From NCBI GenBank assembly GCA_002843005.1, contig PHEX01000004.1:1-59898 (forward strand): DNA of 59,898 nucleotides. Direction: 5' to 3'. Position numbers and translations under genes: made by a program. The notes below the pieces were generated by a model that was not told where the DNA came from, did not search any database, and saw only the letters and a list, made by a program, of their open reading frames with translations. Shown here piece after piece: positions 1,696-57,702 of the stretch. Position 1 is the first letter of the stretch. Every line of letters begins with the position of its first letter. The stretch is from Candidatus Anoxymicrobium japonicum. Its GTDB lineage: Bacteria; Actinomycetota; Geothermincolia; Fen-727; Anoxymicrobiaceae.

Positions 1696-1701
1696 ACTTC
1701 G

Positions 1702-1783
1702 GGGATCCGGTCTGAATAGTTGCATTTTGCTTTACAGTTGCTGTGTCGACAGTCAGAAAATGCAACTATTCAGACCTGATCCC
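1702..1783. terminator. Long inverted repeat (27-nt arms, 1 mismatch, 28-nt loop) after the surface-protein gene; repeat family D
   Basis: GGGATCCGGTCTGAATAGTTGCATTTT (1702-1728) pairs with AAAATGCAACTATTCAGACCTGATCCC (1757-1783). Related units lie at 23446-23509 and 38601-38637. Confidence 0.6.
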
Positions 1784-1848
1784 AGTTGCATCCTGATATA
1801 CTTCCCGCGTGAAAAGTTCACGAAACACGGATGATATACGAGGTTGGC

Positions 1849-2070: not shown

Positions 2071-2134
2071 CCCACGTCTACCGCGTAGCGGTAGACGGAA
2101 AGGTAGACGGAGCGGTAGACGGTGCCTGACCCCT
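2071..2134. repeat. Family A mosaic repeat, short form: small hairpin plus three 12-nt-phased GGTAGACGG units ending TGCCTGACCCC
   Basis: Sequence is CGTCTACCGC-GTA-GCGGTAGACGG-AAA-GGTAGACGG-AGC-GGTAGACGG-TGCCTGACCCC. Confidence 0.85.
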
Positions 2135-4375: not shown

Positions 4376-5395
4376 ATGGTGAAAAAACGCAAAAAAGAGT
4401 CTGACCCCTTTTTGCGTTGCGTCATCGGCGCGGACGCGGGTGGCACCAAGATAGCGGTTGGCGCCGTCGATGCGACCGGTTGTGTAATCCTCAGGCAGGA
4501 AACGCCATCACCTGTGCGCGATGGCGAGCGAATGGTCGCGAAACTCATGGATCTCATCAAATCGTGCGTTCACGCGGCGCGCGGTGAGGGTTTTGAAGCC
4601 GCCGCGGTCGGCATCGCGGCGGCGGGCTATATTTTGCACGAGAAAGGCGTCCTGCTGGAATCGCCGAACATCGCCTGGTCCATGGCGCCGCTCAAGAAGA
4701 TATCACGCGAAGCGACGGGCCTGCCGTCGTTCCTGGAAAACGACGCTAATGCCGCCGCGGCTGGTGAGCATTTCACGGGGGCGTGCAGAAGCGTGGACGA
4801 TTTTGTCTATCTTACCCTGGGCACCGGTGTTGGTGGAGGCGTATATATAGATGGAAATATCTACAGGGGGCATAGAGGAACCGCGGCCGAGCTGGGCCAT
4901 ATGGTGATCGACCCGAACGGGCCGGTTTGTGGTTGCGGCCGCCGTGGGTGCCTGGAGATTCTCGCGTCGGGAACCGCGCTCGAGCGGGAAGCGGCGGAAC
5001 TGTCATCAGGTTCGGACAATTCGCTTCTGCTGGATATGTGCGGTGGCGACACGTCTCTTATTACCGGCGAGATGGTCTCCGCAGCCGCGGAAAAGGGAGA
5101 CCCAAAGGCGCTGGAGGCGTTCAAGCGCGTTGCGTATTATCTTGGCCTTGGCATCGTCAATCTCATTCACGTGTTCAATCCGGAGATGGTGGTTCTGGGT
5201 GGTGGGGTCGCGCGGTCGGGCCACCTGCTGTTAGACGAGCTCGACCTGGTCATTGCCGAGCACGGCATAACCGTTCTTGTCGAGAACACGACCATAGTTC
5301 TCTCGACTCTCGGTGGCGACGCCGGCATTGTGGGGGCCGGAGCTATCGCGTGGGAAGGAATCAAGAAGGGGTTAGATTGTTTCTCAGATCGCTGA
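4376..5395 (+). CDS. ROK-family sugar kinase (glucokinase-like)
   Basis: Has the GADAGGTKIAVG ATP motif, ROK Zn motif GHMVIDPNGPVCGCGRRGCLE and DNDANAAA. Confidence 0.85.
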   Translation: MVKKRKKESDPFLRCVIGADAGGTKIAVGAVDATGCVILRQETPSPVRDGERMVAKLMDLIKSCVHAARGEGFEAAAVGIAAAGYILHEKGVLLESPNIAWSMAPLKKISREATGLPSFLENDANAAAAGEHFTGACRSVDDFVYLTLGTGVGGGVYIDGNIYRGHRGTAAELGHMVIDPNGPVCGCGRRGCLEILASGTALEREAAELSSGSDNSLLLDMCGGDTSLITGEMVSAAAEKGDPKALEAFKRVAYYLGLGIVNLIHVFNPEMVVLGGGVARSGHLLLDELDLVIAEHGITVLVENTTIVLSTLGGDAGIVGAGAIAWEGIKKGLDCFSDR

Positions 5396-11182: not shown

Positions 11183-11211
11183 CTCTCATCAACAAGTGAA
11201 AAACGCATAAC

Positions 11212-11350
11212 GGGGTCAGGCACCGTCTACCTCTCCGTCTACCTTTACTGCGTAGAGGGGTCTGGCAACGTCTACCGCGCAGCGGTAGACGGTGCCTGAC
11301 CCCTGGTTGCGTGGTTGCGGTAGACGGAAAGGTAGACGGTGCCTGACCCC
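11212..11350. repeat. Family A mosaic repeat, long form (L, L', rc-L, rc-L with linkers)
   Basis: Exact GGGGTCAGGCACCGTCTACC at 11212. L'/rc-L hairpin at 11257-11303. A second GGTAGACGGTGCCTGACCCC ends at 11350. Confidence 0.9.
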
Positions 11351-11383
11351 TGATCTGATCTGCGTTTTTTTAGAGGAGAAACG

Positions 11384-16706: not shown

Positions 16707-16803
16707 GGGGTCTGGCAACGTCTACCGCGCAGCGGTAGACGGTGCCTGACCCCGCCGCGTCTACCGCGCAGCGGTAGACGGAGAGGTAGACGGTGCCTGA
16801 CCC
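16707..16803. repeat. Family A mosaic repeat (L'/rc-L hairpin plus the short form)
   Basis: Sequence is GGGGTCTGGCAACGTCTACCGC-GCA-GCGGTAGACGGTGCCTGACCCC, followed by CGTCTACCGC-GCA-GCGGTAGACGG-AGA-GGTAGACGGTGCCTGACCC. Confidence 0.9.
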
Positions 16804-16828
16804 AAAGATCATCAATCAGAGTAGGGCT

Positions 16829-18654: not shown

Positions 18655-20208
18655 TTGTTCGCCAAGCTTTTCGGCTCAACACTCGTTGGAATGGAGTCCC
18701 ACCGTATCCAGATAGAGGTTGATATCACCAGTGGATTACCCGGCCTGGAGATAGTCGGCCTTCCAGACGCCGCTTTGAAGGAATCGCGCATCAGGGTAAA
18801 GTCGGCTGTCAAGAACTCCCAGTTTGAGTGGCCGAAAACCAGGGTTCACATAAATCTCGCCCCGGCGGACGTCAAGAAGGAAGGGCCGTCGTTCGACCTC
18901 CCGATCGCGCTTGGCATACTTCGGGCGATGGGCCAGTTGAGTCTGGCGCGGACGAGCTCGAACTTCATCGCGGTAGGTGAACTCTCGCTGGATGGCCGTG
19001 TGCGCGAGGTGAAGGGCGCTCTCTCGATTGCTATAGGCGCCAGGGAATGTGGCGCTGATTTTCTGATTGTGCCTGAAGGGAACACGCACGAGGCGGCTTT
19101 GGTCGATGGGCTCGATGTCTATGGCGTTGAGAACCTTCGGCAGGCTGTGTCTTTTCTCGAAGGCGCGCGCGCCGATCCGGTCCGCGTTAATCCCGAGGAC
19201 ATGCTCATTGAGAACGCGGATACGGTTGCCGACCTTGCCGACGTGCGCGGTCAGGCGCCGGCCCGCCGGGCGCTCGAGGTAGCCGCGGCCGGAGGTCACA
19301 ACCTGCTGATGATTGGGCCTCCCGGCTCGGGGAAAACTATGCTGGCAAGACGGCTCCCCGGCATCCTGCCGCCACTGACGCTCGAGGAAGCTCTCGAGGT
19401 GACGCGTATTCGCGGCGTCGCCGGCATGGTTTCTCCCGGTGGATCGCTTGCGGGGGCAAGGCCTTTCCGCGCCCCCCACAGCTCTATAAGCGCGGTTGGT
19501 CTGACGGGTGGAGGCGTTCCTCTGCCGAAGCCTGGCGAAGTATCACTTGCCCACTGTGGCGTGTTGTATCTGGATGAGCTTACTCTTTATCCGCGTAACG
19601 CCCTCGAGTCGTTGCGCGTTCCGCTAGAAGACAGGTGTGTCACCATCGTTCGCTCGATGATTGCGGTCGCATATCCCGCGCGCTTCAGCCTTATCGCCTC
19701 GATGAACCCGTGTCCATGCGGATACCTCGGCGATCCGCAACACGAGTGCGCTTGCTCTGTCGGGGATATTGTTCGTTACCGTTCGCGGATATCCGGACCT
19801 CTTCTTGATCGCATCGACATACAGATCGAGGTACCGCGCTTGACCCGGGCGCAACTGATGCAAAGAGAAGGAGGAGAGCCGTCGGCGGCCGTTCGCGAGC
19901 GCGTAGTTGCGGCGCGAAAAATGCAGGAAGCGCGCTACGCCGGCTCGGGAGTATATTTCAACTCCGCCATGACCAATTCGATGCTGGACGCGCACTGCCG
20001 TGCGACGAGCGAAGGCGAACGTTTTCTTGGCGTTGCGGTTGAGCGGCTTGGCCTGTCCGCGCGCTCATATCACCGGGTGCTCAAAGTGGCGCGTACAGTC
20101 GCGGATCTGGCGCGAAGCGAGCGGGTTGAAGTGGAACACCTTGCCGAGGCCGTGCAGTATCGTTGCCTCGAGAGAGACGCCCGTTTTACCGGAGCGGCTG
20201 TGCACTAA
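18655..20208 (+). CDS. comM: Mg-chelatase-like AAA+ protein ComM/YifB
   Basis: Has a Lon-protease-like N-domain, Walker A GPPGSGKTMLARRL and a C-terminal ChlI-like domain. TTG start after GGAGG. Confidence 0.9.
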   Translation: MFAKLFGSTLVGMESHRIQIEVDITSGLPGLEIVGLPDAALKESRIRVKSAVKNSQFEWPKTRVHINLAPADVKKEGPSFDLPIALGILRAMGQLSLARTSSNFIAVGELSLDGRVREVKGALSIAIGARECGADFLIVPEGNTHEAALVDGLDVYGVENLRQAVSFLEGARADPVRVNPEDMLIENADTVADLADVRGQAPARRALEVAAAGGHNLLMIGPPGSGKTMLARRLPGILPPLTLEEALEVTRIRGVAGMVSPGGSLAGARPFRAPHSSISAVGLTGGGVPLPKPGEVSLAHCGVLYLDELTLYPRNALESLRVPLEDRCVTIVRSMIAVAYPARFSLIASMNPCPCGYLGDPQHECACSVGDIVRYRSRISGPLLDRIDIQIEVPRLTRAQLMQREGGEPSAAVRERVVAARKMQEARYAGSGVYFNSAMTNSMLDAHCRATSEGERFLGVAVERLGLSARSYHRVLKVARTVADLARSERVEVEHLAEAVQYRCLERDARFTGAAVH

Positions 20209-20222
20209 GAAGGAAAGTAACC

Positions 20223-21365
20223 GTGAACGAGATTGCAGACGATTCCCGCGTTAGGGATCCAAATCCATGGCTGGCGCGGGAGAAGGCTGAATTGATAGCG
20301 TTACTGTCCCTGCCGGACGCTACGACACAGCGCGTGGGCAAGATGCTCGCGCTTTTTGGAACGCCGGCGAGCGCATGGGAGGCTCTGAGAAACGGCGCTT
20401 ATGATGGCGGTGATCCGACGATGGGCGACTGGCGAGGCGAGGCTTTGCGCGTTGAACCCGCGAAGATTGTCGATCGCCTGGCGAGTTCCGGTATCGATAT
20501 TGTGGCAAGGGGTGAACCGGGTTATCCCGCTCGGCTTGCCCAGATACACGATCCTCCTTACGCGCTTTTTTGCCGGGGCGAGCTCCCCGGCGACCGGGTT
20601 TGCGTTGCTATTGTCGGTTCGCGAAAGGCCACGCCATACGGGCTCGAGGTGGCGCGCTGGCTTGCTCGAGGATTATCCGATCAGGGTCTGTCAATTGTCA
20701 GCGGCGGCGCCTACGGCATCGATTCCGAGGCGCACGTTGGAGCTCTTGAGGCCGGCGGCCACACGTGCGCGGTTCTTGGTTGCGGGGTAGATGTCGTTTA
20801 TCCACGGAGCAACGCCGGGCTTTTCAAGAGAGTGGTCGAAAAAGGATGCCTTCTCTCGGAGTACGTTCCGGGCACGCAGCCAAGGCCGTACCAGTTTCCC
20901 GCGCGAAACCGTGTCATCGCGGGCCTTGCGCGAGCGGTCGTGATCGTCGAGGCGTCACAGAAAAGCGGCGCTCTTATCACAGCCGACTTCGCGCTATCCG
21001 AGAACAGGGAAGTGCTTGCGGTGCCTGGGCAGGTGCTGTCTCCTAACAGCTCGGGGACGCACGCTCTCATTCGCGCGGGTGCCGCGCTGGTCACGTGCCC
21101 TGAGGATGTCCTTGCTGAAATGGGAATGATCACAAACCCGCCGCCGGAGGCGTTTAGCGTAGAGAATCGCGGTGAAAGTCTTTCCCGCGACGAGAGGAAA
21201 TTGCTCGAAGCGCTTGACGGTGGACCGTGCGACATCGAAGATCTTGCCCGAAAGGCGGCGTTTACGGTACGGCTCGCGATGGTGACGCTCAGTTCGCTGG
21301 AGGTAAAGGGACTCGTGACGCGCTCGGCCGGCGCCTCTTATCAGAAATGCCGCCCCAGGGCATAA
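20223..21365 (+). CDS. dprA: DNA-processing protein DprA
   Basis: Has VSGGAYGIDSEAH, the FPARNRVIAGL Rossmann-fold motifs and a C-terminal winged helix. GTG 20223 follows AAGGAAAG. Confidence 0.85.
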   Translation: MNEIADDSRVRDPNPWLAREKAELIALLSLPDATTQRVGKMLALFGTPASAWEALRNGAYDGGDPTMGDWRGEALRVEPAKIVDRLASSGIDIVARGEPGYPARLAQIHDPPYALFCRGELPGDRVCVAIVGSRKATPYGLEVARWLARGLSDQGLSIVSGGAYGIDSEAHVGALEAGGHTCAVLGCGVDVVYPRSNAGLFKRVVEKGCLLSEYVPGTQPRPYQFPARNRVIAGLARAVVIVEASQKSGALITADFALSENREVLAVPGQVLSPNSSGTHALIRAGAALVTCPEDVLAEMGMITNPPPEAFSVENRGESLSRDERKLLEALDGGPCDIEDLARKAAFTVRLAMVTLSSLEVKGLVTRSAGASYQKCRPRA

Positions 21366-21475
21366 TGGGGTCAAACCAAAAGGCATAATGGGGTCAAACC
21401 AAAATATGCGTTTTTGCGGGCGCTTTCATCATTTATCTGTTACAAAACGCATATTTTGGTTTGACCCCATTATGC
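21360..21475. repeat. MITE-like element, family C copy 1, with ~35-nt terminal inverted repeats and a partial duplication of the left arm
   Basis: GCATAATGGGGTCAAACCAAAA is duplicated, then ...TATGCGTTTT...AAAACGCATATTTTGGTTTGACCCCATTATGC follows. The dprA TAA (21363-21365) lies in the first bases of the element. Confidence 0.8.
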
Positions 21476-21522
21476 CTTTTTGCCGTTTGGCAGACAGGCG
21501 CCCACAACCCAAACAACAATAA

Positions 21523-22589: not shown

Positions 22590-23446
22590 CAGGCGCCTGT
22601 AGCATGGCACGACCAACCGGCGCCGCGAAACCCAGGAGTTCGGCTCGCAAATCAGCGAGCGTGGACAAGGCCGAGGAAGAGACGGCACAACTTTGGGTCG
22701 AGTACAAAGATCTTCACTCAGCCGACGCTCGCGAGCGGTTGATACTTCATTATTCACCGTTGGTCAAGTATGTCGCGGGCCGTGTCTTCTCCGGCCTCCC
22801 GTCTTCAATAGAGTTTAGCGATCTGGTGTCTTACGGCGTATTCGGGTTGTTGGATGCTATTGAGAAGTATGACCTGGGGCGTGGCATCAAATTCGAGACC
22901 TATGCTATAGCGCGGATCAAAGGCGCCATAATCGACGAACTCCGCGCGGATGATTGGGTGCCGCGCTCGGTGCGTCTCAAGGCGCGTGAGATTGAGAAAG
23001 CGTATGTGTCGCTCGAGAGCAAACTGCGGCGCGAACCGACCGACGAGGAAGTCGCAGGGGAACTTTGTATCGAACTCGACGAATACCTGAATCTTCTGGG
23101 CAATCTTACTCCCATCTCGATCGTAGCGCTCGATGAGCTCTGGACGGTTACGGGCGATCGTCCAGACAGGATCAGTTTCGCTGAAACTATTGAGGACGTA
23201 AAGGTGAAGGATCCGTCCAAGACCTTTGAGGTCGAGGAGATAAAGGACATGATCGCGTCGGCGATCAATCATCTGCCGGAGAGGGAGCGCACGGTTGTGA
23301 GCCTTTACTACTTCGAGGGTCTGACGATGAGAGAAATCGGAGAGGTCCTGTCCGTCACGGAATCGCGTGTCTGTCAGATACACACAAAGGCGATTCTTCG
23401 CCTGCGCGCCAGGCTCGGCAATGCGCTGGGCATCGATTACGCGTAG
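22586..23446 (+). CDS. FliA/WhiG-family (group 3) RNA polymerase sigma factor
   Basis: Region 2 is DLVSYGVFGLLDAIEKYD. Region 3 is present. The region 4.2 HTH is LTMREIGEVLSVTESRVCQIHTKAI. Confidence 0.85.
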   Translation: MTGACSMARPTGAAKPRSSARKSASVDKAEEETAQLWVEYKDLHSADARERLILHYSPLVKYVAGRVFSGLPSSIEFSDLVSYGVFGLLDAIEKYDLGRGIKFETYAIARIKGAIIDELRADDWVPRSVRLKAREIEKAYVSLESKLRREPTDEEVAGELCIELDEYLNLLGNLTPISIVALDELWTVTGDRPDRISFAETIEDVKVKDPSKTFEVEEIKDMIASAINHLPERERTVVSLYYFEGLTMREIGEVLSVTESRVCQIHTKAILRLRARLGNALGIDYA

Positions 23447-23509
23447 GGTCAGGTCCGAAAATGCAACTATTGAGACCTGACCCTAAATGCAACTATCCAG
23501 ACCTGCCCC
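23446..23509. repeat. Family D repeat: GGGTCAGGTC/GACCTGACCC hairpin plus two direct AAATGCAACTAT-N2-AGACCTG units
   Basis: Sequence is GGGTCAGGTCCGAAAATGCAACTATTGAGACCTGACCCTAAATGCAACTATCCAGACCTGCCCC. It starts 1 nt into the sigma-factor TAG stop. Confidence 0.75.
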
Positions 23510-23644
23510 TCTCTGATACACTTATCAGGATTTGCCTGCTGTAGCAGGTAAAAATACACACCTCGCACGACTTCGCCGTGGGTGCCTTCGGGTTAGCGGT
23601 GGGGAATGAATGCGGGGGAGGAAAAATCAAATTGGAGGTAGAGA

Positions 23645-26601: not shown

Positions 26602-26723
26602 GGGGTCTGGCAACGTCTACCGCTCCGTCTACCGCAACCAGTGGTCAGGCACCGTCTACCGCTAAAGCGGTAGACGTTGCCAGACCCCCCTACGCAGTAA
26701 AAGTAGACGGTGCCTGACCCCTG
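26602..26723. repeat. Family A mosaic repeat (L', L/rc-L' hairpin, linker, rc-L)
   Basis: GGGGTCTGGCAACGTCTACC at 26602. Hairpin at 26643-26688 with a TAAA loop. CTACGCAGTAAAAGTAGACGGTGCCTGACCCC follows. Confidence 0.9.
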
Positions 26724-29960: not shown

Positions 29961-30063
29961 AGTAGAGGTAGACGGTGCCTGACCCCAGGTGTTGCGTTGG
30001 GGCCTGACCACAGTGTTGCGCGACGCGCAGCGGTAGACGGAAAGGTAGACGGTGCCTGACCCC
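29961..30063. repeat. Family A mosaic repeat with an embedded GCAACAC...GGTCAGGCCCC hairpin (family E-like)
   Basis: Sequence is AGTAGAGGTAGACGGTGCCTGACCCC, then AGGTGTTGCGTTGGGGCCTGACCACAGTGTTGCG, then GCGGTAGACGGAAAGGTAGACGGTGCCTGACCCC. Confidence 0.85.
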
Positions 30064-35782: not shown

Positions 35783-36877
35783 GTGAAGATAGCGATTGTG
35801 TCGCCGTATTCATGGGCTTATCCCGGTGGTGTCAATAACCATATCGAGGGTCTTGCGCGGCAGATGGCCGTTCGCGGGCACGAGGTTGTGGTGATCGCGC
35901 CGGACGAGGGAACTGCCGTAGATGGCGCGCGCTTCATCAGCGCGGGGCGCTCGCTCGCGCTCCGGGCCAACGGCTCGATAGCCCATGTCGCAGTGGCGCC
36001 AGGAACCAGGCGGCGGGTCTGCCAGGCTCTTCTGTCGGAAAGCTTCGACGTGGCGCACGTGCACGAGCCGCTTGTCCCAATGGTTTCAACCTCAGCCGTC
36101 CGCGCCGCCAGGTGCAAAGTTGGAGGGACTTTTCACGCTGGACGCGAGAGCGCCTCGATTGCCTACCGGTTGGGGAGCGCTCTGTTTCGCAGGCGAATCG
36201 AGCGCCTTGACTTCCGCATTGCCGTCTCAGAGCCCGCGCGCCTGACGGCTTCGCGTTACATGCCGGGAGAGTACGAGATAGTTCCGAATGGTGTGGACAT
36301 GTCACGTTTCAATCCACGTACCGACGTCGCGAAGTCACGCGGTGGCGATCGCGAGATACTGTTCATCGGACGTAATGAGCCCAGGAAGGGATTGGACACA
36401 CTGCTCGAGGCGTTTCCTCTCATTTGCGATGAGGTTCCCACCTGCCGGCTGTCGGTGATTGGCGCCGGATTTACTTCAGAAGGCGTCCGGCGCTCTTTGC
36501 CTCACGGGTTGCGCGATCGGGTCACTGTTCTTGGCTATGTCAATAACGAAGAGTTGCAGGCGCATTACGCGTCCTCCGACATCTTTTGTTCGCCCGCGCA
36601 TGGCGGCGAGAGTTTTGGCATCGTGCTGATCGAGTCGATGGCGTCCGGGACGCCGGTGGTGGCGTCCGACATACCGGGTTACAGCGAAGTTGTCAAACAG
36701 GCGCCCGGGGGCCTGCTGTTCAAGAACGGGGACTCGCGGGATCTTGCCCGGGTTACTGTCAACATACTGCAAGACGACGCCTTGCGCGCGAAACTGCGAG
36801 AGGCCGGGCTCGAGGGTGTGCGCCAGTTTTCCTGGGAGCGCCTCGCCGAACGCCTGGAGCGAATCTATTCCGCTTAA
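35783..36877 (+). CDS. pimA: GT4 glycosyltransferase, phosphatidylinositol alpha-mannosyltransferase PimA-like
   Basis: Colinear with my recollection of mycobacterial PimA: MKIAIVSPYS..PGGV, FDVAHVHEP, IAVSEPAR, IVPNGVD, EPRKG and the EX7E box GGESFGIVLIESMASGTPVVASD. Confidence 0.75.
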   Translation: MKIAIVSPYSWAYPGGVNNHIEGLARQMAVRGHEVVVIAPDEGTAVDGARFISAGRSLALRANGSIAHVAVAPGTRRRVCQALLSESFDVAHVHEPLVPMVSTSAVRAARCKVGGTFHAGRESASIAYRLGSALFRRRIERLDFRIAVSEPARLTASRYMPGEYEIVPNGVDMSRFNPRTDVAKSRGGDREILFIGRNEPRKGLDTLLEAFPLICDEVPTCRLSVIGAGFTSEGVRRSLPHGLRDRVTVLGYVNNEELQAHYASSDIFCSPAHGGESFGIVLIESMASGTPVVASDIPGYSEVVKQAPGGLLFKNGDSRDLARVTVNILQDDALRAKLREAGLEGVRQFSWERLAERLERIYSA

Positions 36878-37008
36878 CTTTGGGGTCAGGTCTTTTTAAA
36901 GTTTAAGAGGGGTCAGGCACCGTCTACCTCTACGCAGTAAAGGTAGACGTTGTCAGACCCCTCTGGACGGACGATTGACTTTAAAAAAACCTGACCCCAA
37001 AGTTAAGC
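36874..37008. repeat. Nested composite repeat: family B outer 24-nt inverted arms ending in TTAA, enclosing a family A hairpin
   Basis: TTAACTTTGGGGTCAGGTCTTTTT (36874-36897) pairs with AAAAAAACCTGACCCCAAAGTTAA (36983-37006). The inner L/L'-like hairpin lies at 36909-36961. The pimA TAA lies in the left arm. Confidence 0.85.
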
Positions 37009-37053
37009 GATTTGTTGTATTATAATGTTGAAATTAACTTAGAGGAGGTTTTT

Positions 37054-37664: not shown

Positions 37665-38627
37665 TTGTACGAAGCGATATCTTCCAACAAGTGGAAATCT
37701 TTTCTGATGCTGTTTCTTTTCATCGTTTTTGTGGTGGGGATGGGTTACGTTATCGGGCTTGCGTGGGGAGGCACAACACACCCGGTGTTTGGCTTCGTCG
37801 GGCTTGGAGTCGCGGGGATCGTCGCTATTGGCATGGGGTTCGCCAGCTACTATAAGAGCGACAGTGTGGCGTTATCAGTGTCGGGCGCGCGGCCGATAGG
37901 GGATGACCCGCAATTCATAAGGTACCGGAATACCGTCGAGGGCATTGCCATTGCCGCAGGGGTTCCGACACCGCGTATCTACGTGATAGACGACGTCGCG
38001 CCCAACGCGTTTGCGACGGGACGCAACCCGCAAAACTCGGCGATTGCCGCGACTACCGGCTTGCTCGACATGATGAACGATCAGGAGCTGGAGGGCGTAA
38101 TCGCTCACGAGATGTCACACGTGAAGAATTACGACATACTTTTTCTTTCCATGACAATCGTGCTTGTCGGTATCGTGGTAATGCTCTCGGATATTTTCTT
38201 GAGGACGTTCTGGTTTTCCGATAACGACAGTGACAGTGACAGCGGCGAAGCCGGGCTCATACTGATAGTCATTGGCATAGCGCTTGCCATTATCGCGCCG
38301 ATAATCGCGCAGCTCATCAAGCTCGCTATCGGCAGGAAGCGAGAGTTTCTGGCGGACGCCAACGGGGCGCTTCTGACAAGGTATCCGTTGGGGCTCAGCT
38401 CCGCACTCGAGAAGATAGGCGGGGATGACCATCGTATGCGCAGAGCCAATAAGGCCATGGCGCACCTGTATATAGCGCAGCCGCTGAATCTCAGAAGCGG
38501 CAAGGGCAGCCGCATGAACAGGATGTTCGACACCCATCCGCCAATCGAGGAGCGCGTCGCGCGGCTAAACCGGATGGCAGGCAACTTTCAGGAAACCAGT
38601 GCAACAGGGGTCAGGTCTCAATACTGA
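37665..38627 (+). CDS. htpX: Zn-dependent membrane protease HtpX (M48)
   Basis: Has HEMSHV (HEXXH), 4 TM segments and the NAFATG motif. Confidence 0.9.
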   Translation: MYEAISSNKWKSFLMLFLFIVFVVGMGYVIGLAWGGTTHPVFGFVGLGVAGIVAIGMGFASYYKSDSVALSVSGARPIGDDPQFIRYRNTVEGIAIAAGVPTPRIYVIDDVAPNAFATGRNPQNSAIAATTGLLDMMNDQELEGVIAHEMSHVKNYDILFLSMTIVLVGIVVMLSDIFLRTFWFSDNDSDSDSGEAGLILIVIGIALAIIAPIIAQLIKLAIGRKREFLADANGALLTRYPLGLSSALEKIGGDDHRMRRANKAMAHLYIAQPLNLRSGKGSRMNRMFDTHPPIEERVARLNRMAGNFQETSATGVRSQY

Positions 38628-38637
38628 CCCCTGTTGC
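38601..38637. terminator. Hairpin GCAACAGGGGTCAG...CTGACCCCTGTTGC overlapping the htpX stop codon (family D/E related)
   Basis: 14-bp perfect stem with a 9-nt loop. The htpX TGA (38625-38627) lies inside the 3' arm. Confidence 0.6.
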
Positions 38638-38653
38638 ATTTATTGGATGGATC

Positions 38654-39769: not shown

Positions 39770-39815
39770 AAACGCAACAGTAGGGGTCAGGCCCCTTTGT
39801 TGCGTTTTCGCGTTG
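39768..39815 (+). terminator. Family E hairpin terminator (AACGCAACAG-TAGGGGTCAGGCCCCTT-TGTTGCGTT followed by T-rich tail)
   Basis: Stem AACGCAACA/TGTTGCGTT with an inner GGGG/CCCC pairing, immediately after the DUF3048 stop. Confidence 0.6.
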
Positions 39816-42657: not shown

Positions 42658-43245
42658 ATGATCGCGTACATCAACGGCAAAATAATTCAGAAGAACCCGG
42701 ATCGTCTGGTCGTGCTGGTTGGTGGTATCGGCATAGAGGTCAGGGCGCCGGCTGGAACAATAGACCAGGCGCCGGGGGTGGGTGGCGTGGTCGCGCTTCA
42801 CACATATCTTCACGTCAGACAGGATGTGTTGCAGTTGTACGGGTTCGATTCGCCCGCGTCGCGAGATTTATTTGTCAAACTCATGTCGGTATCAGGGTTT
42901 GGCGCCCAGAAGGCGCTTTCTGTGTTGTCGATTTTCCCGCATGACAGGTTTGAGACGGTGATAAGGATGGGAGACGCGGACGCTCTCACGATCATCCCCG
43001 GGGTTGGGAAGAAGGGCGCCGAGCGCTTGCTGCTCGAGATGAAGGACAAGGTTGACCCCTCGATCGAGGACGTGACGGGCCTTCCCCCCGATGGCCGGTT
43101 CGCGTTTAACGAAGCTGCCATGGCCATGGCGCAACTCGGATACTCGCGGCTCGAGGCGCACGAGGCGCTTAAAAAATACCCGTTCAAGGGCGAGGAGGCA
43201 ACCGTCGAGGAGCTCTTGCAGTTTGCCATGAAGCAAATGGCATAG
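42658..43245 (+). CDS. ruvA: Holliday junction DNA helicase RuvA
   Basis: Starts MIAYINGKI and carries the HhH motifs LMSVSGFGAQKAL and IPGVGKKGAERL. Confidence 0.9.
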   Translation: MIAYINGKIIQKNPDRLVVLVGGIGIEVRAPAGTIDQAPGVGGVVALHTYLHVRQDVLQLYGFDSPASRDLFVKLMSVSGFGAQKALSVLSIFPHDRFETVIRMGDADALTIIPGVGKKGAERLLLEMKDKVDPSIEDVTGLPPDGRFAFNEAAMAMAQLGYSRLEAHEALKKYPFKGEEATVEELLQFAMKQMA

Positions 43246-43326
43246 GGTCTACCTTTACTGCGTAGAGGGGTCAGGCACCGTCTACCTCTCCGTCTACCGC
43301 TAAAGCGATAGACGTTGCCTGACCCC
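43245..43326. repeat. Family A mosaic repeat starting on the ruvA TAG stop
   Basis: Sequence is GGGTCTACCTTTACTGCGTAGA-GGGGTCAGGCACCGTCTACC-TCTCCGTCTACCGC-TAAA-GCGATAGACGTTGCCTGACCCC. Confidence 0.85.
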
Positions 43327-47007: not shown

Positions 47008-47009
<2 letters not shown>

Positions 47010-47055
47010 GGTAGACGGAGCGGTAGACGGAGCGGTAGACGGTGCCTGACCCCTG
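47008..47055. repeat. Family A repeat, non-palindromic form: three GGTAGACGG units at exact 12-nt spacing plus TGCCTGACCCC
   Basis: GGTAGACGG at 47010, 47022 and 47034, separated by AGC. It abuts the tgt TAA (47007-47009). Confidence 0.9.
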
Positions 47056-50197: not shown

Positions 50198-52371
50198 TGA
50201 CGGAACGGTCGCCTGGCGCTGAGAAGTTGTTCTCGATGACAGGGCGCCTTTTCTCGAAGAGCGGGCAGCGCCAGATCGAGAAGGCATACCGGGTCGCCTT
50301 GAAGTCGCACGGTGACCAGTGCCGGAAATCCGGCGAGCCGTATATTGTTCATCCGATCGCCGTGGCATCCACCCTCGCGGAGTTGGAGCTGGATCAAAAC
50401 ACCATCAGCGCGGCGCTTCTCCATGACGTGGTCGAGGACACTGGTCTCTCGATAGCCGATGTCCGCGATCAGTTTTCTGCGACGATCGCGGACATCGTCG
50501 ATGGCGTTACAAAGCTCGAGCGGTTCAAGTTTGATTCGCGCGAAGAGCAGCAGGCTGAAAACATGCGCAAGATGCTCATCGCAATGGCTGGCGACGTGCG
50601 CGTCATGCTTATCAAGCTGGCTGACCGCCTTCACAACATGGAGACGATCGGCGCGTTGTCTCTCGCGCGCCGTCGCGAGATCGCCCAGGAAACCATCGAT
50701 ATCTACGCGCCGCTGGCGCACCGCTTTGGCATATCCCAGATCGAGTGGCGGCTCGAGGATCTTTCGTTCGAGGTTCTGCACCCCATGCGGTATGAGCAGA
50801 TAAAGAGAATGGTCACTGAACGGCGTGTCGAGCGCGAGAAGTACATGCAACGCCTTACCGGACACATTTCGGACGAACTCAAGAAAAATAAGATAAAGGC
50901 GGACGTTTCAGGGCGCGTCAAGCATTTCTACAGCATCTACGAAAAGATCGTGAACCGCGGCATCGAGTTTGACGAGATCATGGACCTCTCCGCCGTGAGG
51001 GTTACGGTCGACTCGATCCGCGATTGCTACGCGGTTCTTGGAGTGATCCACGCTATGTGGATGCCGGTGCCGGGGCGCTTCAAGGACTATATCGCGATGC
51101 CGAAGCTCAACATGTACCGTTCCCTGCACACTGTCGTGATCAGCATGGAGGGTTGGCCGCTGGAGATTCAGATACGCACCCATGAGATGCACCGTACCGC
51201 CGAGTGCGGGATCGCCGCGCACTGGTTGTACAAAGAGCGCTTGCGCCGCGACCAGGGGGGCCGCAACTGGCTCAAGCAGGTGATGGAGTGGCAACAGGAG
51301 ATCAAAGACCCGGCAGAGTTCATGAAGAACCTCAAGGTGGATATGTTTCAGGACGAGGTGTTTGTCTTTACTCCCGGCGGAAAACTGCTATCGCTTCAGG
51401 CGGGCGCGACACCGATAGATTTCGCTTACAGCATACACACCGAAGTCGGGCACAGTTGCGTGGGGGCGAAGGTGAACGGGAAAATGGCGCCGCTCTCCTG
51501 TCATCTCCATAACGGCGACATCATAGAGATCATGACTTCAAAGAACGCTTCCGGCCCCAGCCGTGACTGGCTCAATATCGTCGAGACGTCTCGCGCGCGC
51601 AACAAGATCCGTCAGTGGTTTTCCCGCGAGCGGCGTGAAGATGAGCGCAACGAGGGCAAGGAGGCGCTCGACCGGGCAATGCGAAAACTGGGCGTCCCGT
51701 TCAAGCGCAGGGAGGTTGCCAGAGTACTGACACAGTTTGCCGAGGATCAGCGCCTGACCGGGCTTGATGATCTCTACAGGCAGATAGGCGCGGGCCACGT
51801 TTCCGCGAACGTGATTGCCGGCAAGGCGTCGCAATGCCTGGCGGGTCATGAGAAAAAATCAGTAATGATCCCGGAGAGCGAGCCTTTGCCGAAGCAGAGG
51901 TTTGATGTGGAGGCTCGCGACGCGCGCTTGATCCAGCGCATAAAAGTTCACGGGATAGAAAACGCGCTGGTGCAGGTAGCTCGTTGCTGCTGTCCCGCTC
52001 CCGGAGACCCGATAGTAGGGTTTGTCACCAGGAGCAGGGGTGTTTCTGTCCACCGCAAGGATTGTAAGAATGTTCAGGATTTCTCACGAGAGTTAGACAG
52101 GCTTATCGAGGTCACATGGGAGAAAGAAGAGCCGAGGATCAAGGTGGTCGAGATATGCGTCGAAGCCTGGGACAGGCCCAGGTTGGTCAGGGACATTACG
52201 GCTGTTCTTGGTGATCAGGGCGTAAACATTCTCTCGGCGTCGTTTTCTTCGGACTCACAGCGCCTCTCGAGGAGCAACCTGATTTTTGAGATAGGCTCGA
52301 ACACCCATCTGAAGGATATTTTCAAGGACATCAAAAAAATCGACTCAGTCATCGACGCCTACGACATTTAA
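50194..52371 (+). CDS. relA: Bifunctional (p)ppGpp synthetase/hydrolase Rel (RelA/SpoT family)
   Basis: Has the HD hydrolase domain (HPIAVA, LLHDVVEDT), the synthetase domain (RVKHFYSIYEK, DLSAVRV, YRSLHT), TGS and a C-terminal ACT-like domain. Confidence 0.95.
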   Translation: MMTERSPGAEKLFSMTGRLFSKSGQRQIEKAYRVALKSHGDQCRKSGEPYIVHPIAVASTLAELELDQNTISAALLHDVVEDTGLSIADVRDQFSATIADIVDGVTKLERFKFDSREEQQAENMRKMLIAMAGDVRVMLIKLADRLHNMETIGALSLARRREIAQETIDIYAPLAHRFGISQIEWRLEDLSFEVLHPMRYEQIKRMVTERRVEREKYMQRLTGHISDELKKNKIKADVSGRVKHFYSIYEKIVNRGIEFDEIMDLSAVRVTVDSIRDCYAVLGVIHAMWMPVPGRFKDYIAMPKLNMYRSLHTVVISMEGWPLEIQIRTHEMHRTAECGIAAHWLYKERLRRDQGGRNWLKQVMEWQQEIKDPAEFMKNLKVDMFQDEVFVFTPGGKLLSLQAGATPIDFAYSIHTEVGHSCVGAKVNGKMAPLSCHLHNGDIIEIMTSKNASGPSRDWLNIVETSRARNKIRQWFSRERREDERNEGKEALDRAMRKLGVPFKRREVARVLTQFAEDQRLTGLDDLYRQIGAGHVSANVIAGKASQCLAGHEKKSVMIPESEPLPKQRFDVEARDARLIQRIKVHGIENALVQVARCCCPAPGDPIVGFVTRSRGVSVHRKDCKNVQDFSRELDRLIEVTWEKEEPRIKVVEICVEAWDRPRLVRDITAVLGDQGVNILSASFSSDSQRLSRSNLIFEIGSNTHLKDIFKDIKKIDSVIDAYDI

Positions 52372-52505
52372 CTTTTGGGTCAGGCACCGTCTACCGCTAA
52401 AGCGGTAGACGTTGCCAGACCCCCCCTACGCAGTAAAGGTAGACGGTGCCTGACCCCTCTGGACGGACGATCGACTTTTAGAAAAAAGACCTGACCCCCA
52501 AAGTT
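52369..52505. repeat. Nested composite repeat: family B arms enclosing family A modules, with the left arm fused to L at the shared core
   Basis: Left side is TTAACTTTTGGGTCAGG-CACCGTCTACC. Hairpin at 52377-52423. rc-L at 52438-52457. Right side is ...CTCTGGACGGACGATCGACTTTTAGAAAAAAGACCTGACCCCCAAAGTT. The relA TAA lies in the first bases. Confidence 0.85.
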
Positions 52506-52557
52506 CAATTGTTGTTTACTCTGTTACTATTAGGGCACATCGACAGGAAGTTCACGC

Positions 52558-53211: not shown

Positions 53212-54518
53212 TGAAGTACCGCGCGCCAAAAGGAACTTTTGATCTCGTCTATCCAGATTCGGAGAAGGCAAACTGGCTTGTGCGCTCGGCGTGCGAAGTC
53301 ATGGCTCTCTACGGCTATGAGAGGATAATCACGCCGATCATAGAGAGCGCCGACCTCTTCCGGCGCGGCATCGGCGATGATAGCGATATTGTCACCAAAG
53401 AGATGTATTCGTTTGAGGATCAGGGGGGTGAAAGCCTTACGTTGCGCCCAGAGGGGACGGCGCCTGTCGCGCGCGCGTTCATAGAGCGCGGGCTCGCCTC
53501 GCGAGGCCTTCCTCAGAAGTTGTATTATGCCGGCCCGATGTTCAGGCGCGAGAGGCCGCAGGCGGGGCGCTTCAGGCAGTTTTTCCAGGTTGGGGCGGAG
53601 GCGATTGGAAGTGTTGATCCTTTCATCGACGCTGAGATCATCGCGATATCCGATCACCTGTTCAAGCGCCTCGGACTATCCGGCTACACCCTTTTCTTGA
53701 ACAACGTGGGTTGTGGTGAGTGCAGGCCGAAGTACATGAGCCGCCTCTCCGAGTTTTTAGGCGCCGTGATTCCTGCGCTTTGCGGGGAGTGCCAGAGGCG
53801 CGCTTCCTTAAACCCGCTGCGCGTTCTGGATTGCAAGAATGGGTCTTGCCGGCGCGCGGTTGCGGATGCGCCGACAATGGGAAGCTATCTGTGTGGACGG
53901 TGCCGGGAAAACTTCGACGCCGTGATGATGAGTCTTGATCGTTTGAGTATCACGTTTGAGATCGACGAGCGCATGGTGAGAGGACTCGACTACTACACAG
54001 GCACAGCGTTCGAGTTTCAGTTTGAAGGATTGGGAGCGCAAAATACGGTCTCGGCCGGAGGGCGCTACGATTATCTGATCGAGCAACTCGGAGGCCCGCC
54101 GACCCCCGGGGTCGGGTACAGTCTGGGGGTGGAGAGGCTTGTAATGGCGTTGGACGCTCAAGGCCTGGATCCGTGTGAGCGCTTGCGTCTCGACCTGTTC
54201 ATAGCCGGCGCGCCGGGGGTGGATCGTGACCGCCTGCTGGATATCCTCGCCCGCGCGCGGGAAGAGGGCATCTCCGCGGACACCGATGTCATGGGACGCG
54301 GGCTAAAGGCGCAGATGAAGCAGGCCGACCGGATGCGGGCGCGTCTCGTTCTCATCATTGGGCCGGACGAGCTCGAGCGCGGAGAAGTGACAGTGCGCGA
54401 CCTCGACGCGTCAGAGCAGTGGCAGATCCCGGTTGAGATGGTAATCGAAAAAGTGATCGATTTCCTAAAACGCATAATGGGGTCAAACCAAAATATGCGT
54501 TTTGTAACAGATAAATGA
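53211..54518 (+). CDS. hisS: Histidyl-tRNA synthetase; the last ~15 codons and the stop are supplied by a family C repeat
   Basis: Starts [11 protein letters not shown]. Has class II motifs ([30 protein letters not shown]) and an anticodon-binding domain. The C-terminus ...[16 protein letters not shown] is encoded by element C (54467 onward). Confidence 0.9.
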
Positions 54519-54570
54519 TGGGAGCGCGCATAAAAACGCATATTTTGGTTTGACCCCATTATGCGTTTTT
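54467..54570. repeat. MITE-like element, family C copy 2 (inverted relative to copy 1)
   Basis: AAAACGCATAATGGGGTCAAACCAAAATATGCGTTTT ... AAAACGCATATTTTGGTTTGACCCCATTATGCGTTTTT. The central segment is the reverse complement of the one at 21415-21450. Confidence 0.85.
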
Positions 54571-56412: not shown

Positions 56413-56929
56413 CAGGGGTCAGGCACCGTCTACCTTTCCGTCTACCTCTACGCAGTAAATTTATCAACTCCGCGCCGCGCTCGAGCGCTGATTCCAGGTT
56501 AGTTTGCTCGAGCCTTCGGGCGAGCGTCCACCACTCTTTGTCGTCGAGACGGATGCCGCGATCCTCGAGCAGCGACTCTATAACGCCGTTGACTTCGATT
56601 ATCGAGAAGCACTTTTGCCGGTGGGCGGGGGAGATCCTCGCGAGCGCGTAGCATTGCCAGCGGGTCATAGTCAAAACCAGATCCGACGCGGACAGGCGGG
56701 TTTCGTTCACCGGAGAGGAGGTCGTGTCGCATGCCGGGATTCCGAGTTTTTCGAGCGACCTCAACGTTTCCGGATGAGGGGGCGAACCAGGCGCCGCTTC
56801 GATACCGCACGACTCCGATGTCAGGGCGACCGCCCGGCAGCCAAGGAGTTCCTCCGCCCGCCTGCGCAACACGCACTCGGCGATGACGCTTCTCATGATA
56901 TTTCCAGTACAGATGAACAAAATACGCAT
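56312..56929 (-). CDS. Low-molecular-weight protein-tyrosine/arsenate-reductase-type phosphatase with a repeat-derived C-terminal tail
   Basis: Starts [14 protein letters not shown] (CX5R-S P-loop). After about aa 155 the frame runs through the family A repeat ([15 protein letters not shown]) and 100 nt antisense into aspS before the first stop. Confidence 0.7.
56415..56460. repeat. Family A repeat (L plus CCGTCTACC plus CTACGCAGTAAA linker) between convergent aspS and the phosphatase gene
   Basis: Sequence is GGGGTCAGGCACCGTCTACCTTTCCGTCTACCTCTACGCAGTAAA, starting 2 nt after the aspS TAG. Confidence 0.85.
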
Positions 56930-57012: not shown

Positions 57013-57666
57013 TTGAAGATTATCGCGCACCGGGGCGGCCGTGGATTTGGCGCCGACAATACGCTCGAGGCGATGGAGAAAGCCGTTCGCGCTGGCGTGC
57101 GGATGATAGAGACGGATGTACGATCGACTGTCGACGGCAGGCTCTTGATATGTCACGACGGCACAGTCGGTGGCCGCGTCATCCGCCATACACCGTACGA
57201 CGAGATCAAGAAGCACGCCCCGGATCGCCCGTTGCTGGATGACATTCTGGAGAGATTGGCCGGCTGGGTTGCCTTCAACTTAGAGATAAAGTGCGCGAAC
57301 GCGCGAGATACAGGTGAAACGCTCGAAGCGTACGGCATCCTTAACGATACCGTCGTGACGTCGTTCAACAGAGACATTGTCCGCGAATACAAACACAACT
57401 ATCCGACGGCGCCGACCGGGCAACTCTACCGCATGCCTTACGGGAACGAGAGAAAACTCCATCGCGCTCTTGACATCGGCGCGGAGTTCATCGCGCCGCA
57501 CTGCAGCACCATAGACGAAGACCTGGTGCGCAGGGCGCATGAGTCAGGGCTGAAAGTCATCGCGTGGACGGTCAATGACGAGGACGAATTCAGCAGGTTG
57601 TACGGCTGGGGGGTTGACGCGATTATTACGGATCACTACTTCAAGATGCGAGATTTGTTGAAATAA
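57013..57666 (+). CDS. Glycerophosphodiester phosphodiesterase (GDPD family)
   Basis: Contains IIAHRGG, IETDVR, LNLEIK and VIAWTVND. TTG start. Confidence 0.85.
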   Translation: MKIIAHRGGRGFGADNTLEAMEKAVRAGVRMIETDVRSTVDGRLLICHDGTVGGRVIRHTPYDEIKKHAPDRPLLDDILERLAGWVAFNLEIKCANARDTGETLEAYGILNDTVVTSFNRDIVREYKHNYPTAPTGQLYRMPYGNERKLHRALDIGAEFIAPHCSTIDEDLVRRAHESGLKVIAWTVNDEDEFSRLYGWGVDAIITDHYFKMRDLLK

Positions 57667-57702
57667 CGCAACAGTGGGGTCAGGCCCCAGTGTTGCGTTT
57701 TT
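57665..57702. terminator. Bidirectional family E hairpin terminator between the convergent GDPD gene and galE
   Basis: AACGCAACA-GTGGGGTCAGGCCCCAG-TGTTGCGTT is flanked by an A-rich 5' side and a TTTTT 3' side. Confidence 0.65.

Follow-up and report, generated by a model that had tools for sequence, protein, structure and literature searches.

A dense mosaic family of REP/BIME-like intergenic repeats in a housekeeping region of Candidatus Anoxymicrobium japonicum

The window analyzed here is a 59,898-nt stretch of contig PHEX01000004.1 (assembly GCA_002843005.1) from Candidatus Anoxymicrobium japonicum. Gene calls and Pfam domains identify a compact, co-directional housekeeping region that includes smc, ftsY, ffh, rpsP, trmD, rplS, rpsB, tsf, pyrH, frr, dxr, rseP, ispG, proS, ruvCAB, queA, tgt, yajC-secDF, relA, hisS, and aspS. 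In the gene table built from these calls and domains, intergenic DNA amounts to 3,353 nt, or 5.6% of the window. Ten of the gaps hold clusters of a 20-nt repeat, L (GGGGTCAGGCACCGTCTACC), together with its variants and linkers. The repeats belong to a known kind, the intergenic palindromic repeats that resemble repetitive extragenic palindromes (REPs), bacterial interspersed mosaic elements (BIMEs), and REPINs. Their anatomy, placement, and distribution among relatives are described below, and explanations for them are weighed.

Results

The window contains 12 exact copies of L and 4 copies with a single mismatch (16785, 26641, 26702, and 52376), in both orientations. The variant L' (GGGGTCTGGCAACGTCTACC) occurs 5 times exactly (11257, 16707, 26602, 26669, and 52404). 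The recount agrees fully with the hand counts of the original prediction, a reading of the nucleotide sequence without database searches that proposed a REP/BIME-type mosaic at ten intergenic loci. All ten loci are present, with one-base corrections to two of them (16707–16804 and 52376–52457). At ≤3 mismatches, 23 L-like units are found in the window and none in 100 dinucleotide-preserving shuffles.

L is composed of an 8-nt head (GGGGTCAG) and a 12-nt unit, GCA-CCGTCTACC. Tandem tail units are likewise 12 nt long and have the form NNN-CCGTCTACC; extra ones (TCT-, TTT-, or GCT-CCGTCTACC) follow L in phase, usually singly but as a pair in clusters 1 and 8. Module GGTAGACGG is present in 26 copies and the 8-mer GGTAGACG in 35. 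The linker CTACGCAGTAAAGGTAGAC has 5 copies at ≤1 mismatch, and its 12-nt core, TTTACTGCGTAG, has 6. This core followed by A or G forms the K linker, which is always preceded by GTCTACC and followed by a new head or an inverted unit. The other linkers of the clusters are TCT/TTT/GCT, GCGCAGC, and GCTAAAGC. Hairpin loops read GC-gca-GC, GC-taaa-GC, or GC-gta-GC. The base 5′ of the head is usually A, and the commonest junction is CA before GGGG, which reads CCCC before TG on the opposite strand.

Clusters were tokenized into the modules L, L', S, s, and K, each written as forward [X>] or inverted [<X] (Table 1). Units lie in both orientations, and all ten architectures differ, as had been claimed from the sequence. 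Orientation counts of the K linker (2 forward, 4 reverse) and of the inverted doublets described below (2 and 3) give no usable strand or replication bias.

The clusters total 837 nt, or 25% of the intergenic DNA, and fill 10 of the 16 gaps of ≥70 nt. All L-like units and 34 of the 35 GGTAGACG 8-mers are intergenic; coding DNA holds the remaining 8-mer and 3 of 21 copies of the GGGGTCAGG motif. Seven of the ten clusters begin 0–6 nt from the upstream stop codon, some overlapping it, and nine end with a CCCC head toward the downstream gene, 16–92 nt before its start codon. Since all flanking genes are co-directional, the L elements are presumably transcribed. Target-site duplications of 2–9 bp were sought at all complete clusters, and none were found; flanks differ, as in ATAAC/TGATC, TTCA/TGGC, and AAGA/TCTG.

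The copied unit is an imperfect inverted doublet made of L', a short loop, and the reverse complement of L, with two fixed mismatches and often GTAG 5′ of the hairpin foot. All six short-range hairpins are L/L' heteroduplexes that pair a C12 arm with an A12 arm and carry two identical mismatches (binomial P = 0.006). L' (T7, A12) is found only as the hairpin partner of L and never alone. The mismatched doublet is thus inherited as a unit. As single-stranded DNA, doublet D (47 nt) folds at -26.9 kcal/mol (z -7.7), and GTAG stays unpaired 1 nt 5′ of the foot. The same holds on the minus strand for the doublet at 26641–26688, which also has an unpaired GTAG at its foot. The core CGTCTACCGC-N3-4-GCGGTAGACG is a stable imperfect palindrome, as is doublet D. 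The original prediction pointed to GTAG in every unit. That statement is true, and it is trivial because the units are copies of one sequence; GTAG is also present inside every S unit, where it is uninformative. The narrower signal is seen in four of six doublets, where GTAG is located 1–3 nt 5′ of the hairpin foot (11253, 43263, and minus strand 26689 and 52424); it is absent from the doublets at 16707 and 36909.

L elements occupy gene junctions and the loops of existing hairpins. Region 11190–11380 forms one triple-nested hairpin (RNA minimum free energy [MFE] -126.8 kcal/mol, z -14), in which a AAAAACGCA/TGCGTTTTTTT stem encloses an L-S...S-L pairing that in turn encloses doublet D. Region 36870–37015 (RNA MFE -88.9 kcal/mol, z -15.6) is a 33-bp palindrome, O, whose loop contains an L hairpin. 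The cluster 9 site (52370–52505) keeps the O right arm and a remnant of the left arm, and cluster 9 has the appearance of a cluster 6 shortened by a deletion between two direct repeats of GGGGTCAGG. A U-run follows cluster 2 only and, weakly, the O palindromes. The gap that holds cluster 9 also differs in gene content. Relatives have a D-tyrosyl-tRNA deacylase gene (dtd) between relA and the MBL-fold gene (19404–19850 in the fetched locus L041), and the window lacks it; its 186-nt gap (52372–52557) consists of cluster 9 and the O remnant.

The remaining gaps of the window are mostly occupied by other long palindromes or plain terminators with a common GGGGTCA(G/A)(G/A) core. Halves of core-bearing terminators are embedded in clusters 2, 4, and 5. 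Together with the junction occupancy of relatives described below, these features point to L as one subfamily in a clade-wide superfamily of gained and lost GGGGTCA-headed palindromes, with a burst in this genome. The larger set, the nesting of clusters, and the solitary 20-mers of other genera described below were not mentioned in the original prediction. The two M copies are perfect long hairpins of roughly 100 nt with weak matches to microRNA (miRNA) precursor-like Rfam families, and a shorter relative of the M arm lies 3′ of ftsY in the relative L036 (7650–7720). M resembles GCGCATAA over 8 nt only and was rejected as a dif/Xer site. Arms of the N family read GGG(A/G)TCAGGTC...AATGCAACTATT. 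An O-like, 27-bp perfect inverted repeat is located between yceD and rpmF in the relative L038 (553–634). A hairpin of the same terminator-like type, AAAAAACGCAAAAAAGAGTCTGACCCCTTTTTGCGTT (4385–4420), falls within the first codons called for a ROK-family gene; either the start codon was called too far upstream or the open reading frame (ORF) has absorbed the hairpin.

Table 1. Coordinates of L clusters, their substructures, and related palindromes in the window (asterisks as marked in the tokenization)
Feature	Coordinates	Strand	Architecture or sequence	Location and remarks
L cluster 1	2071–2134		[s>] gcgtagc [<S] aaa [<S] agc [<L]	Between Zn-ribbon gene and rpmF; begins 6 nt past stop codon; half cluster, no significant fold
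L cluster 2	11212–11350		[L>] tct [S>] [K>] a [L'>] gcgcagc [<L] tggttgcgtggttgc [<S] aaa [<L]	Between DUF5679 and ffh
L cluster 3	16707–16804		[L'>] gcgcagc [<L] gccg [s>] gcgcagc [<S] aga [<L*]	Between UPF0102 and DUF6311
L cluster 4	26602–26723		[L'>] gct [S>] gcaacca [L>*] gctaaagc [<L'] c [<K] [<L*]	Between frr and cdsA; begins 4 nt past stop codon
L cluster 5	29961–30063		agtaga [<L], halves of GGGGTCAGG-type terminators, [<S] aaa [<L]	Between rseP and ispG; ends 16 nt ahead of ispG ATG; no significant fold
L cluster 6	36909–36961		[L>] t [<K] [<L'*]	In loop of O palindrome
L cluster 7	43245–43326		gggtctacc [K>] a [L>] tct [S>] gctaaagc GATAGACGTTGCCTGACCCC	Within ruvA-ruvB junction; begins at ruvA stop codon
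L cluster 8	47008–47055		[<S] agc [<S] agc [<L]	Between tgt and yajC; begins right after stop codon; unstructured (z +1.8)
L cluster 9	52376–52457		[L>*] gctaaagc [<L'] cc [<K] [<L]	Between relA and MBL-fold gene; then O palindrome right arm (52458–52505)
L cluster 10	56415–56460		[L>] ttt [S>] t [<K]	Begins 2 nt past aspS stop codon; half cluster, no significant fold
Doublet D	11257–11303	+	L' + GC-gca-GC + reverse complement of L	22-bp hairpin, two conserved mismatches
Host terminator-like stem	11198–11372	+	AAAAACGCA...TGCGTTTTTTT	Encloses cluster 2
O palindrome	36871–37009		Arms CGCTTAACTTTGGGGTCAGGTnTTTTTAAAGT	Encloses cluster 6; left arm overlaps GT4 gene stop codon
M palindrome	21359–21480		Arms AAAACGCATAATGGGGTCAAACCAAAATATGCGTTTT	Between dprA and xerC
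M palindrome, copy 2	54467–54569		Inverted orientation	hisS-aspS junction; overlaps called ends of both genes
N palindrome	1700–1790		Arms GGGATCAGGTCTGAATAGTTGCATTTT	After BNR/TIG gene
N-related copy	23446–23510			After sigma-factor gene
Intrinsic-terminator-like hairpin	39770–39812	+	AAAACGCAACAGTAGGGGTCAGGCCCCTTTGTTGCGTTTT	With common core
Hairpin-plus-U-run terminator	38600–38638			With common core
Hairpin-plus-U-run terminator	57664–57702			With common core

The nearest Ffh and RuvB homologues are only 83–84% identical to those of the window. In three relatives (L036–L038; 60–66% G+C), the DUF5679-ffh gap and the gap between UPF0102 and the next gene hold GC hairpin/T-run terminators and zero L units. 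In the relative L041 (1-Mb contig), zero L or S units are found in 21 kb, and the ruvA-ruvB gap is 5 nt long, compared with 104 nt in the window. L041 carries other GGGGTCA-headed palindromes of 52–109 nt at its ruvC-ruvA, ruvB-queH, and queA-tgt junctions, which in the window measure 3 nt or overlap. The occupancy of operon-internal junctions therefore differs between genomes, as it does for elements that are gained and lost. The original prediction had treated identical gaps in relatives as the mark of ancient fixed terminators; in the orthologous gaps of the relatives, L units are absent.

Genome and metagenome collections other than the window's own metagenome-assembled genome (MAG) were scanned with the 20-mer. 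In relatives, among species-representative genomes and JGI metagenomes, the exact 20-mer is present only as solitary L-S copies, one per contig of 24–73 kb. These contigs belong to Anoxymicrobiaceae/Actinomycetota and have 62–66% G+C, and the GGGG end of the repeat abuts a stop or start codon. The density in the window (17 exact L or L' per 60 kb) is at least an order of magnitude higher. Near the L copies of relatives, no transposases were recognized among the neighboring ORFs, whose translations were judged by eye without a Pfam scan and resemble ordinary enzymes, for example acyl-CoA synthetase and nucleoside hydrolase.

Several loci of relatives carry L beside other repeats. In Anoxymicrobiaceae DAIUEJ01 (L005 4638–4760 / L015 781–900), a canonical L precedes a complete inverted element that belongs to a variant family. 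GTCCACC replaces GTCTACC in all four tail units of that element, which indicates concerted change of the 12-nt units. L036 (8752–8820) and L014 share a composite of L-S and the palindrome GGTGCCAGGCAC. This palindrome is flanked by an A-run and a T-run, lies 25–35 nt from L-S in two unrelated loci (L036; L014, L016, and L019), and has CGGTGCC in common with the L head region. It may be the partner arm of a long-range hairpin. An exact L-S is also present on a 2.4-kb contig with 63% G+C (L001, JAGUVP010000166.1) assigned to a Candidatus Bipolaricaulis bin; the contig is probably actinobacterial and mis-binned, and not a cross-phylum occurrence.

The clusters are base-identical in the NCBI MAG contig JAEMOG010000309.1 (GCA_017973855.1), two JGI 3300029891 contigs, and SRR3546457 Logan contigs. 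Short-read Logan contigs terminate inside L repeats, and short-read assembly in this clade is interrupted by the repeats. Relative to the public assemblies, the window has a few single-nucleotide polymorphisms and a 43-nt deletion directly 3′ of cluster 3. At 26642, the window has T where the NCBI contig carries G, which makes the one-mismatch copy GTGGTCAGG... an exact L in the NCBI contig. This difference is a population polymorphism within a repeat unit. The 43 nt (CTGGTTGGTTGGCAAACATGGAGAACAGCGATATGAGAAGAGC) are present in the NCBI and JGI assemblies (L028 5099–5141), are absent from the window at 16804/16805, and include the annotated ATG of the DUF6311 gene. The DUF6311 ORF in the window begins at a GTG (16793) inside an L unit, with a Shine-Dalgarno-like GGAGAGG of the S-L junction upstream. 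With the ATG deleted and this GTG used, the repeat may therefore donate translation start signals, both ribosome-binding site and start codon, to the DUF6311 gene in the strain variant.

A chimeric or mis-assembled repeat restricted to this contig was considered, the source being a MAG. Three independent assemblies (NCBI, JGI, and Logan) agree base for base across the clusters, the flanking genes are intact and syntenic with relatives, and the identical 20-mer is found in contigs of other organisms. An assembly or binning artifact, which the original prediction had raised, is thus vanishingly improbable and is excluded for practical purposes.

Searches for a known family or a responsible enzyme were negative within their scope. 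Rfam gave no match at the gathering score; at E ≤ 1, miRNA-like chance matches fall on other palindromes and none on L loci. A scan of viral contigs with the 20-mer gave 0 matches, and blastn of cluster 2 against plasmids and phages gave none. The 20-mer was not found in the literature searched, where the genus Anoxymicrobium is without mention. The claim that the consensus is unlike described families therefore holds in Rfam and in that literature. The original prediction also proposed looking for a RAYT/TnpA-REP gene, and neither the window nor any of the fetched loci yielded a RAYT-like ORF; within this genome, the search covered about 65.5 kb of a 68.5-kb contig (the window and 5.6 kb upstream).

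Several known element types were tried and rejected. The clusters lack the regular spacing of a CRISPR array, their core sites do not fit integron attC sites, and they have no -10/-35 promoter arrangement. A DNA uptake sequence was rejected on the near absence of the motifs from coding DNA. The original prediction had set aside CRISPR arrays and plain terminators, and this stands: with no significant fold in four of the ten, the clusters are more than plain terminators.

Discussion

The L loci are read, at about even confidence, as non-autonomous REPIN/BIME-like mobile palindromic elements that are mobilized in trans via single-stranded hairpins. This reading is based on the extragenic mosaic, the inherited doublet mismatches, the hairpin with GTAG at its foot, the nesting, the lack of target-site duplications, the lineage-specific amplification, and the junction occupancy that varies between genomes. 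L is best explained as that subfamily of a clade-wide superfamily of GGGGTCA-headed hairpins which has amplified in Candidatus Anoxymicrobium japonicum. In such a process, an enzyme acting in trans would excise or copy the elements and re-insert them as hairpins of single-stranded DNA; its likeliest candidate would be an HUH/Y1 (RAYT- or IS200-like) nuclease reading the head and the hairpin foot. Slippage of 12-nt units and recombination between common GGGGTCAGG cores would then diversify the clusters into mosaics and half clusters, as suggested by the varying number of S units and by the relationship of clusters 6 and 9. Those elements that form hairpins would probably have a secondary role as 3′-end or processing barriers in polycistronic mRNA. 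The original REP/BIME assignment is borne out by the modules in both orientations, the conserved linkers, the extragenic placement, and the lack of target-site duplication. No RAYT-like ORF was found in the window or the fetched loci, and the 20-mer itself is not a palindrome.

Several observations weigh against mobility. L is conserved at 20 of 20 nt across genera that differ in composition (57% versus 62–66% G+C), which is unusually strong for selfish repeats, and such base-perfect conservation would also fit a selected function. No empty and filled pair of one site was found in closely related strains, and the nearest relatives are at about 83% in Ffh; L mobility is accordingly read from gap occupancy and not observed directly. 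The L-S unit has no fold (z +1.2), nor do clusters 1, 5, 8, and 10 have a significant RNA fold (z -1.1 to +1.4 on the plus strand, with cluster 1 down to -2.0 on the minus strand). Since the 20-mer is also non-palindromic, hairpin formation is not universal. A tblastn search with Escherichia coli RayT (NC_000913) against the window and about 40 fetched loci gave nothing better than E = 0.44, and the Pfam tables of neighboring genes contain zero Y1_Tnp domains. Actinobacteria are absent from both REP/RAYT surveys searched: the eight phyla listed in a survey of REPs tagged with GTAG or CGTC do not include Actinobacteria (Di Nocera 2013, PMC3733652), and a phylogenomic study of HUH Y1 proteins, in which canonical REPs carry a 5′ GT[AG]G at the hairpin foot, does not mention Actinobacteria among RAYT hosts (Quentin 2018, PMC6006769).

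The main rival, although unlikely, is that L and the other GGGGTCAGG hairpins are lineage-specific, sequence-conserved terminators or 3′-end hairpins that a host factor reads as RNA or DNA, kept by selection and spread by gene conversion between terminators rather than by transposition. The TRIT motif of Mycobacterium offers a precedent, with 147 copies located narrowly at the stop codon and conserved genus-wide (PMC3152330). Ordinary hairpin-plus-U-run terminators of the window have the GGGGTCAGG core (38600, 39770, and 57664), the AAAAACGCA/TGCGTTTTTTT stem closes cluster 2, and terminator halves belong to the mosaic. The tight placement of clusters at stop codons, the CCCC head toward the downstream gene, and the solitary L copies that abut stop or start codons in other genera with all 20 bases kept are also as such a signal would have them, and the sequence conservation of L exceeds even that of TRIT. 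However, four clusters and the solitary L-S units do not fold, so that not every copy is a hairpin, and most clusters lack a U-run. Clusters lie in the operon junctions ruvA-ruvB, tgt-yajC, and rseP-ispG, which in relatives measure 5–100 nt and hold no such element, and relatives have unrelated terminators at orthologous positions. The gap in density between genomes, roughly 15-fold or more, resembles a burst and not a conserved signal. Mobility and a gene-end role are not exclusive, and a terminator-seeding, partly domesticated mobile family would show both. It is also possible, although unlikely, that L, M, N, O, and the terminator-like hairpins form an undescribed actinobacterial class of mobile hairpins that inserts preferentially into hairpin loops and gene junctions, served by an enzyme other than a classical GTAG-reading RAYT or by a host factor to which the head marks a gene boundary. 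Such a class or factor would explain the 20/20 identity across genera of different G+C.

Two further explanations are improbable. The clusters could be classical miniature inverted-repeat transposable elements (MITEs), deletion derivatives of a DDE transposon with terminal inverted repeats (TIRs) CAGGGGTCAGGCACCGTCTACC, 12-nt repeats as transposase sites, and a full-length copy elsewhere. The tips are similar to those of Tn3-family inverted repeats, which also begin with GGGG, and L' and the Tn3 tip presumably have GGGGTCTG in common. Inverted L-S ends bound the complete clusters, GGGG tips outward (31 of 32 nt in cluster 2), and the subterminal units are tandem with a 12-nt period. Against this, no cluster has a target-site duplication, single ends make up many of the copies, no transposase was recognized near any copy, and scans of genomes and metagenomes gave no inverted L pair at transposon-like spacing. 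In the M family and around cluster 2, moreover, the palindrome extends beyond the GGGG tip. A protein-binding array, also a remote prospect, would treat the 12-nt periodic GGTAGACGG and the GTGCCTGACCCC head as iteron-like sites at gene boundaries for a nucleoid-associated or regulatory protein, with hairpins incidental. It would account for the conservation of sequence rather than pairing in all copies, unstructured ones included, and for the fixed 12-nt phase with a tandem copy number of 1–3. The exchange of GTCTACC for GTCCACC in all four units of the variant family and the GGTGCCAGGCAC palindrome adjoining L-S in two unrelated loci are also counted in its favor. It is at odds with the unconstrained architecture, the inconsistent position relative to promoters and start codons (16–92 nt from cluster end to start), the absence of units from orthologous sites in relatives, and the functionally unrelated housekeeping genes that flank the clusters.

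Read as mobile REPIN/BIME-like elements, the L loci can be compared with several known systems. REP/REPIN systems are known mainly from proteobacteria, and their mechanism of dissemination is still unsettled. Their units are GC-rich imperfect palindromes of 20–40 nt with more than 100 extragenic copies per genome, and a REPtron has its RAYT gene flanked by such units; the local density of L-like units is 23 per 60 kb. Like the REP/BIME elements of E. coli and other proteobacteria, L is strictly extragenic, dense, and of alternating orientation, with few conserved linkers and variable mosaics. Both are located between co-directional genes just past stop codons, without target-site duplication, and with GTAG near the foot in some copies. 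Unlike them, L is a non-palindromic 20-mer made of an 8-nt head and 12-nt tandem tails, and its conserved head is GGGGTCAGG instead of GT[AG]G; the window and the fetched loci yielded no RAYT gene, and the host is a Geothermincolia-related actinobacterium. REPINs of Pseudomonas are REP doublets that form hairpins (Bertels & Rainey 2011, as cited in PMC6006769). On that account of REPINs, L is similar in that the replicated entity is an inverted doublet with a long imperfect hairpin and inherited mismatches (6/6), and singletons coexist with clusters; it differs in that doublets are nested in other palindromes and combined with tandem 12-mers. TRIT is a palindromic motif with conserved sequence and structure, for which a dedicated factor was suspected by those who described it (Gardner et al. 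2011, PMC3152330). L is likewise actinobacterial, multicopy, tight at stop codons, and not confined to one species. TRIT consists of one hairpin, whereas L loci are mosaic, often without a fold, found within operons, and absent from orthologous sites of relatives.

Other small intergenic elements share part of this organization. BOX elements of Streptococcus pneumoniae are intergenic and hairpin-capable, with a variable internal tandem module between conserved ends, modules of 45–59 nt, and the fixed order A-Bn-C. L is likewise modular, intergenic, and hairpin-forming, but its modules are 8–20 nt long and permuted. Correia elements (CREE), TIR-MITEs, and Tn3-derived TIMEs are small, intergenic, and co-transcribed, with inverted ends, a defined length, and target-site duplications (TA or 5 bp). 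L clusters are intergenic with inverted ends but have no duplications and no defined length. Specifics of L that are undescribed are the host lineage, the non-palindromic head with 12-nt tandems, the GGGGTCA head common to several families including terminators, the nesting, and the base-perfect conservation across genera.

A dense modular family in an uncultured actinobacterial lineage would extend the range of REP/REPIN systems. Together, the features of L make a compact system for finding the responsible enzyme. Because the repeats sit inside conserved operons, they probably affect mRNA processing in ruvAB, tgt-yajC-secDF, and rseP-ispG.

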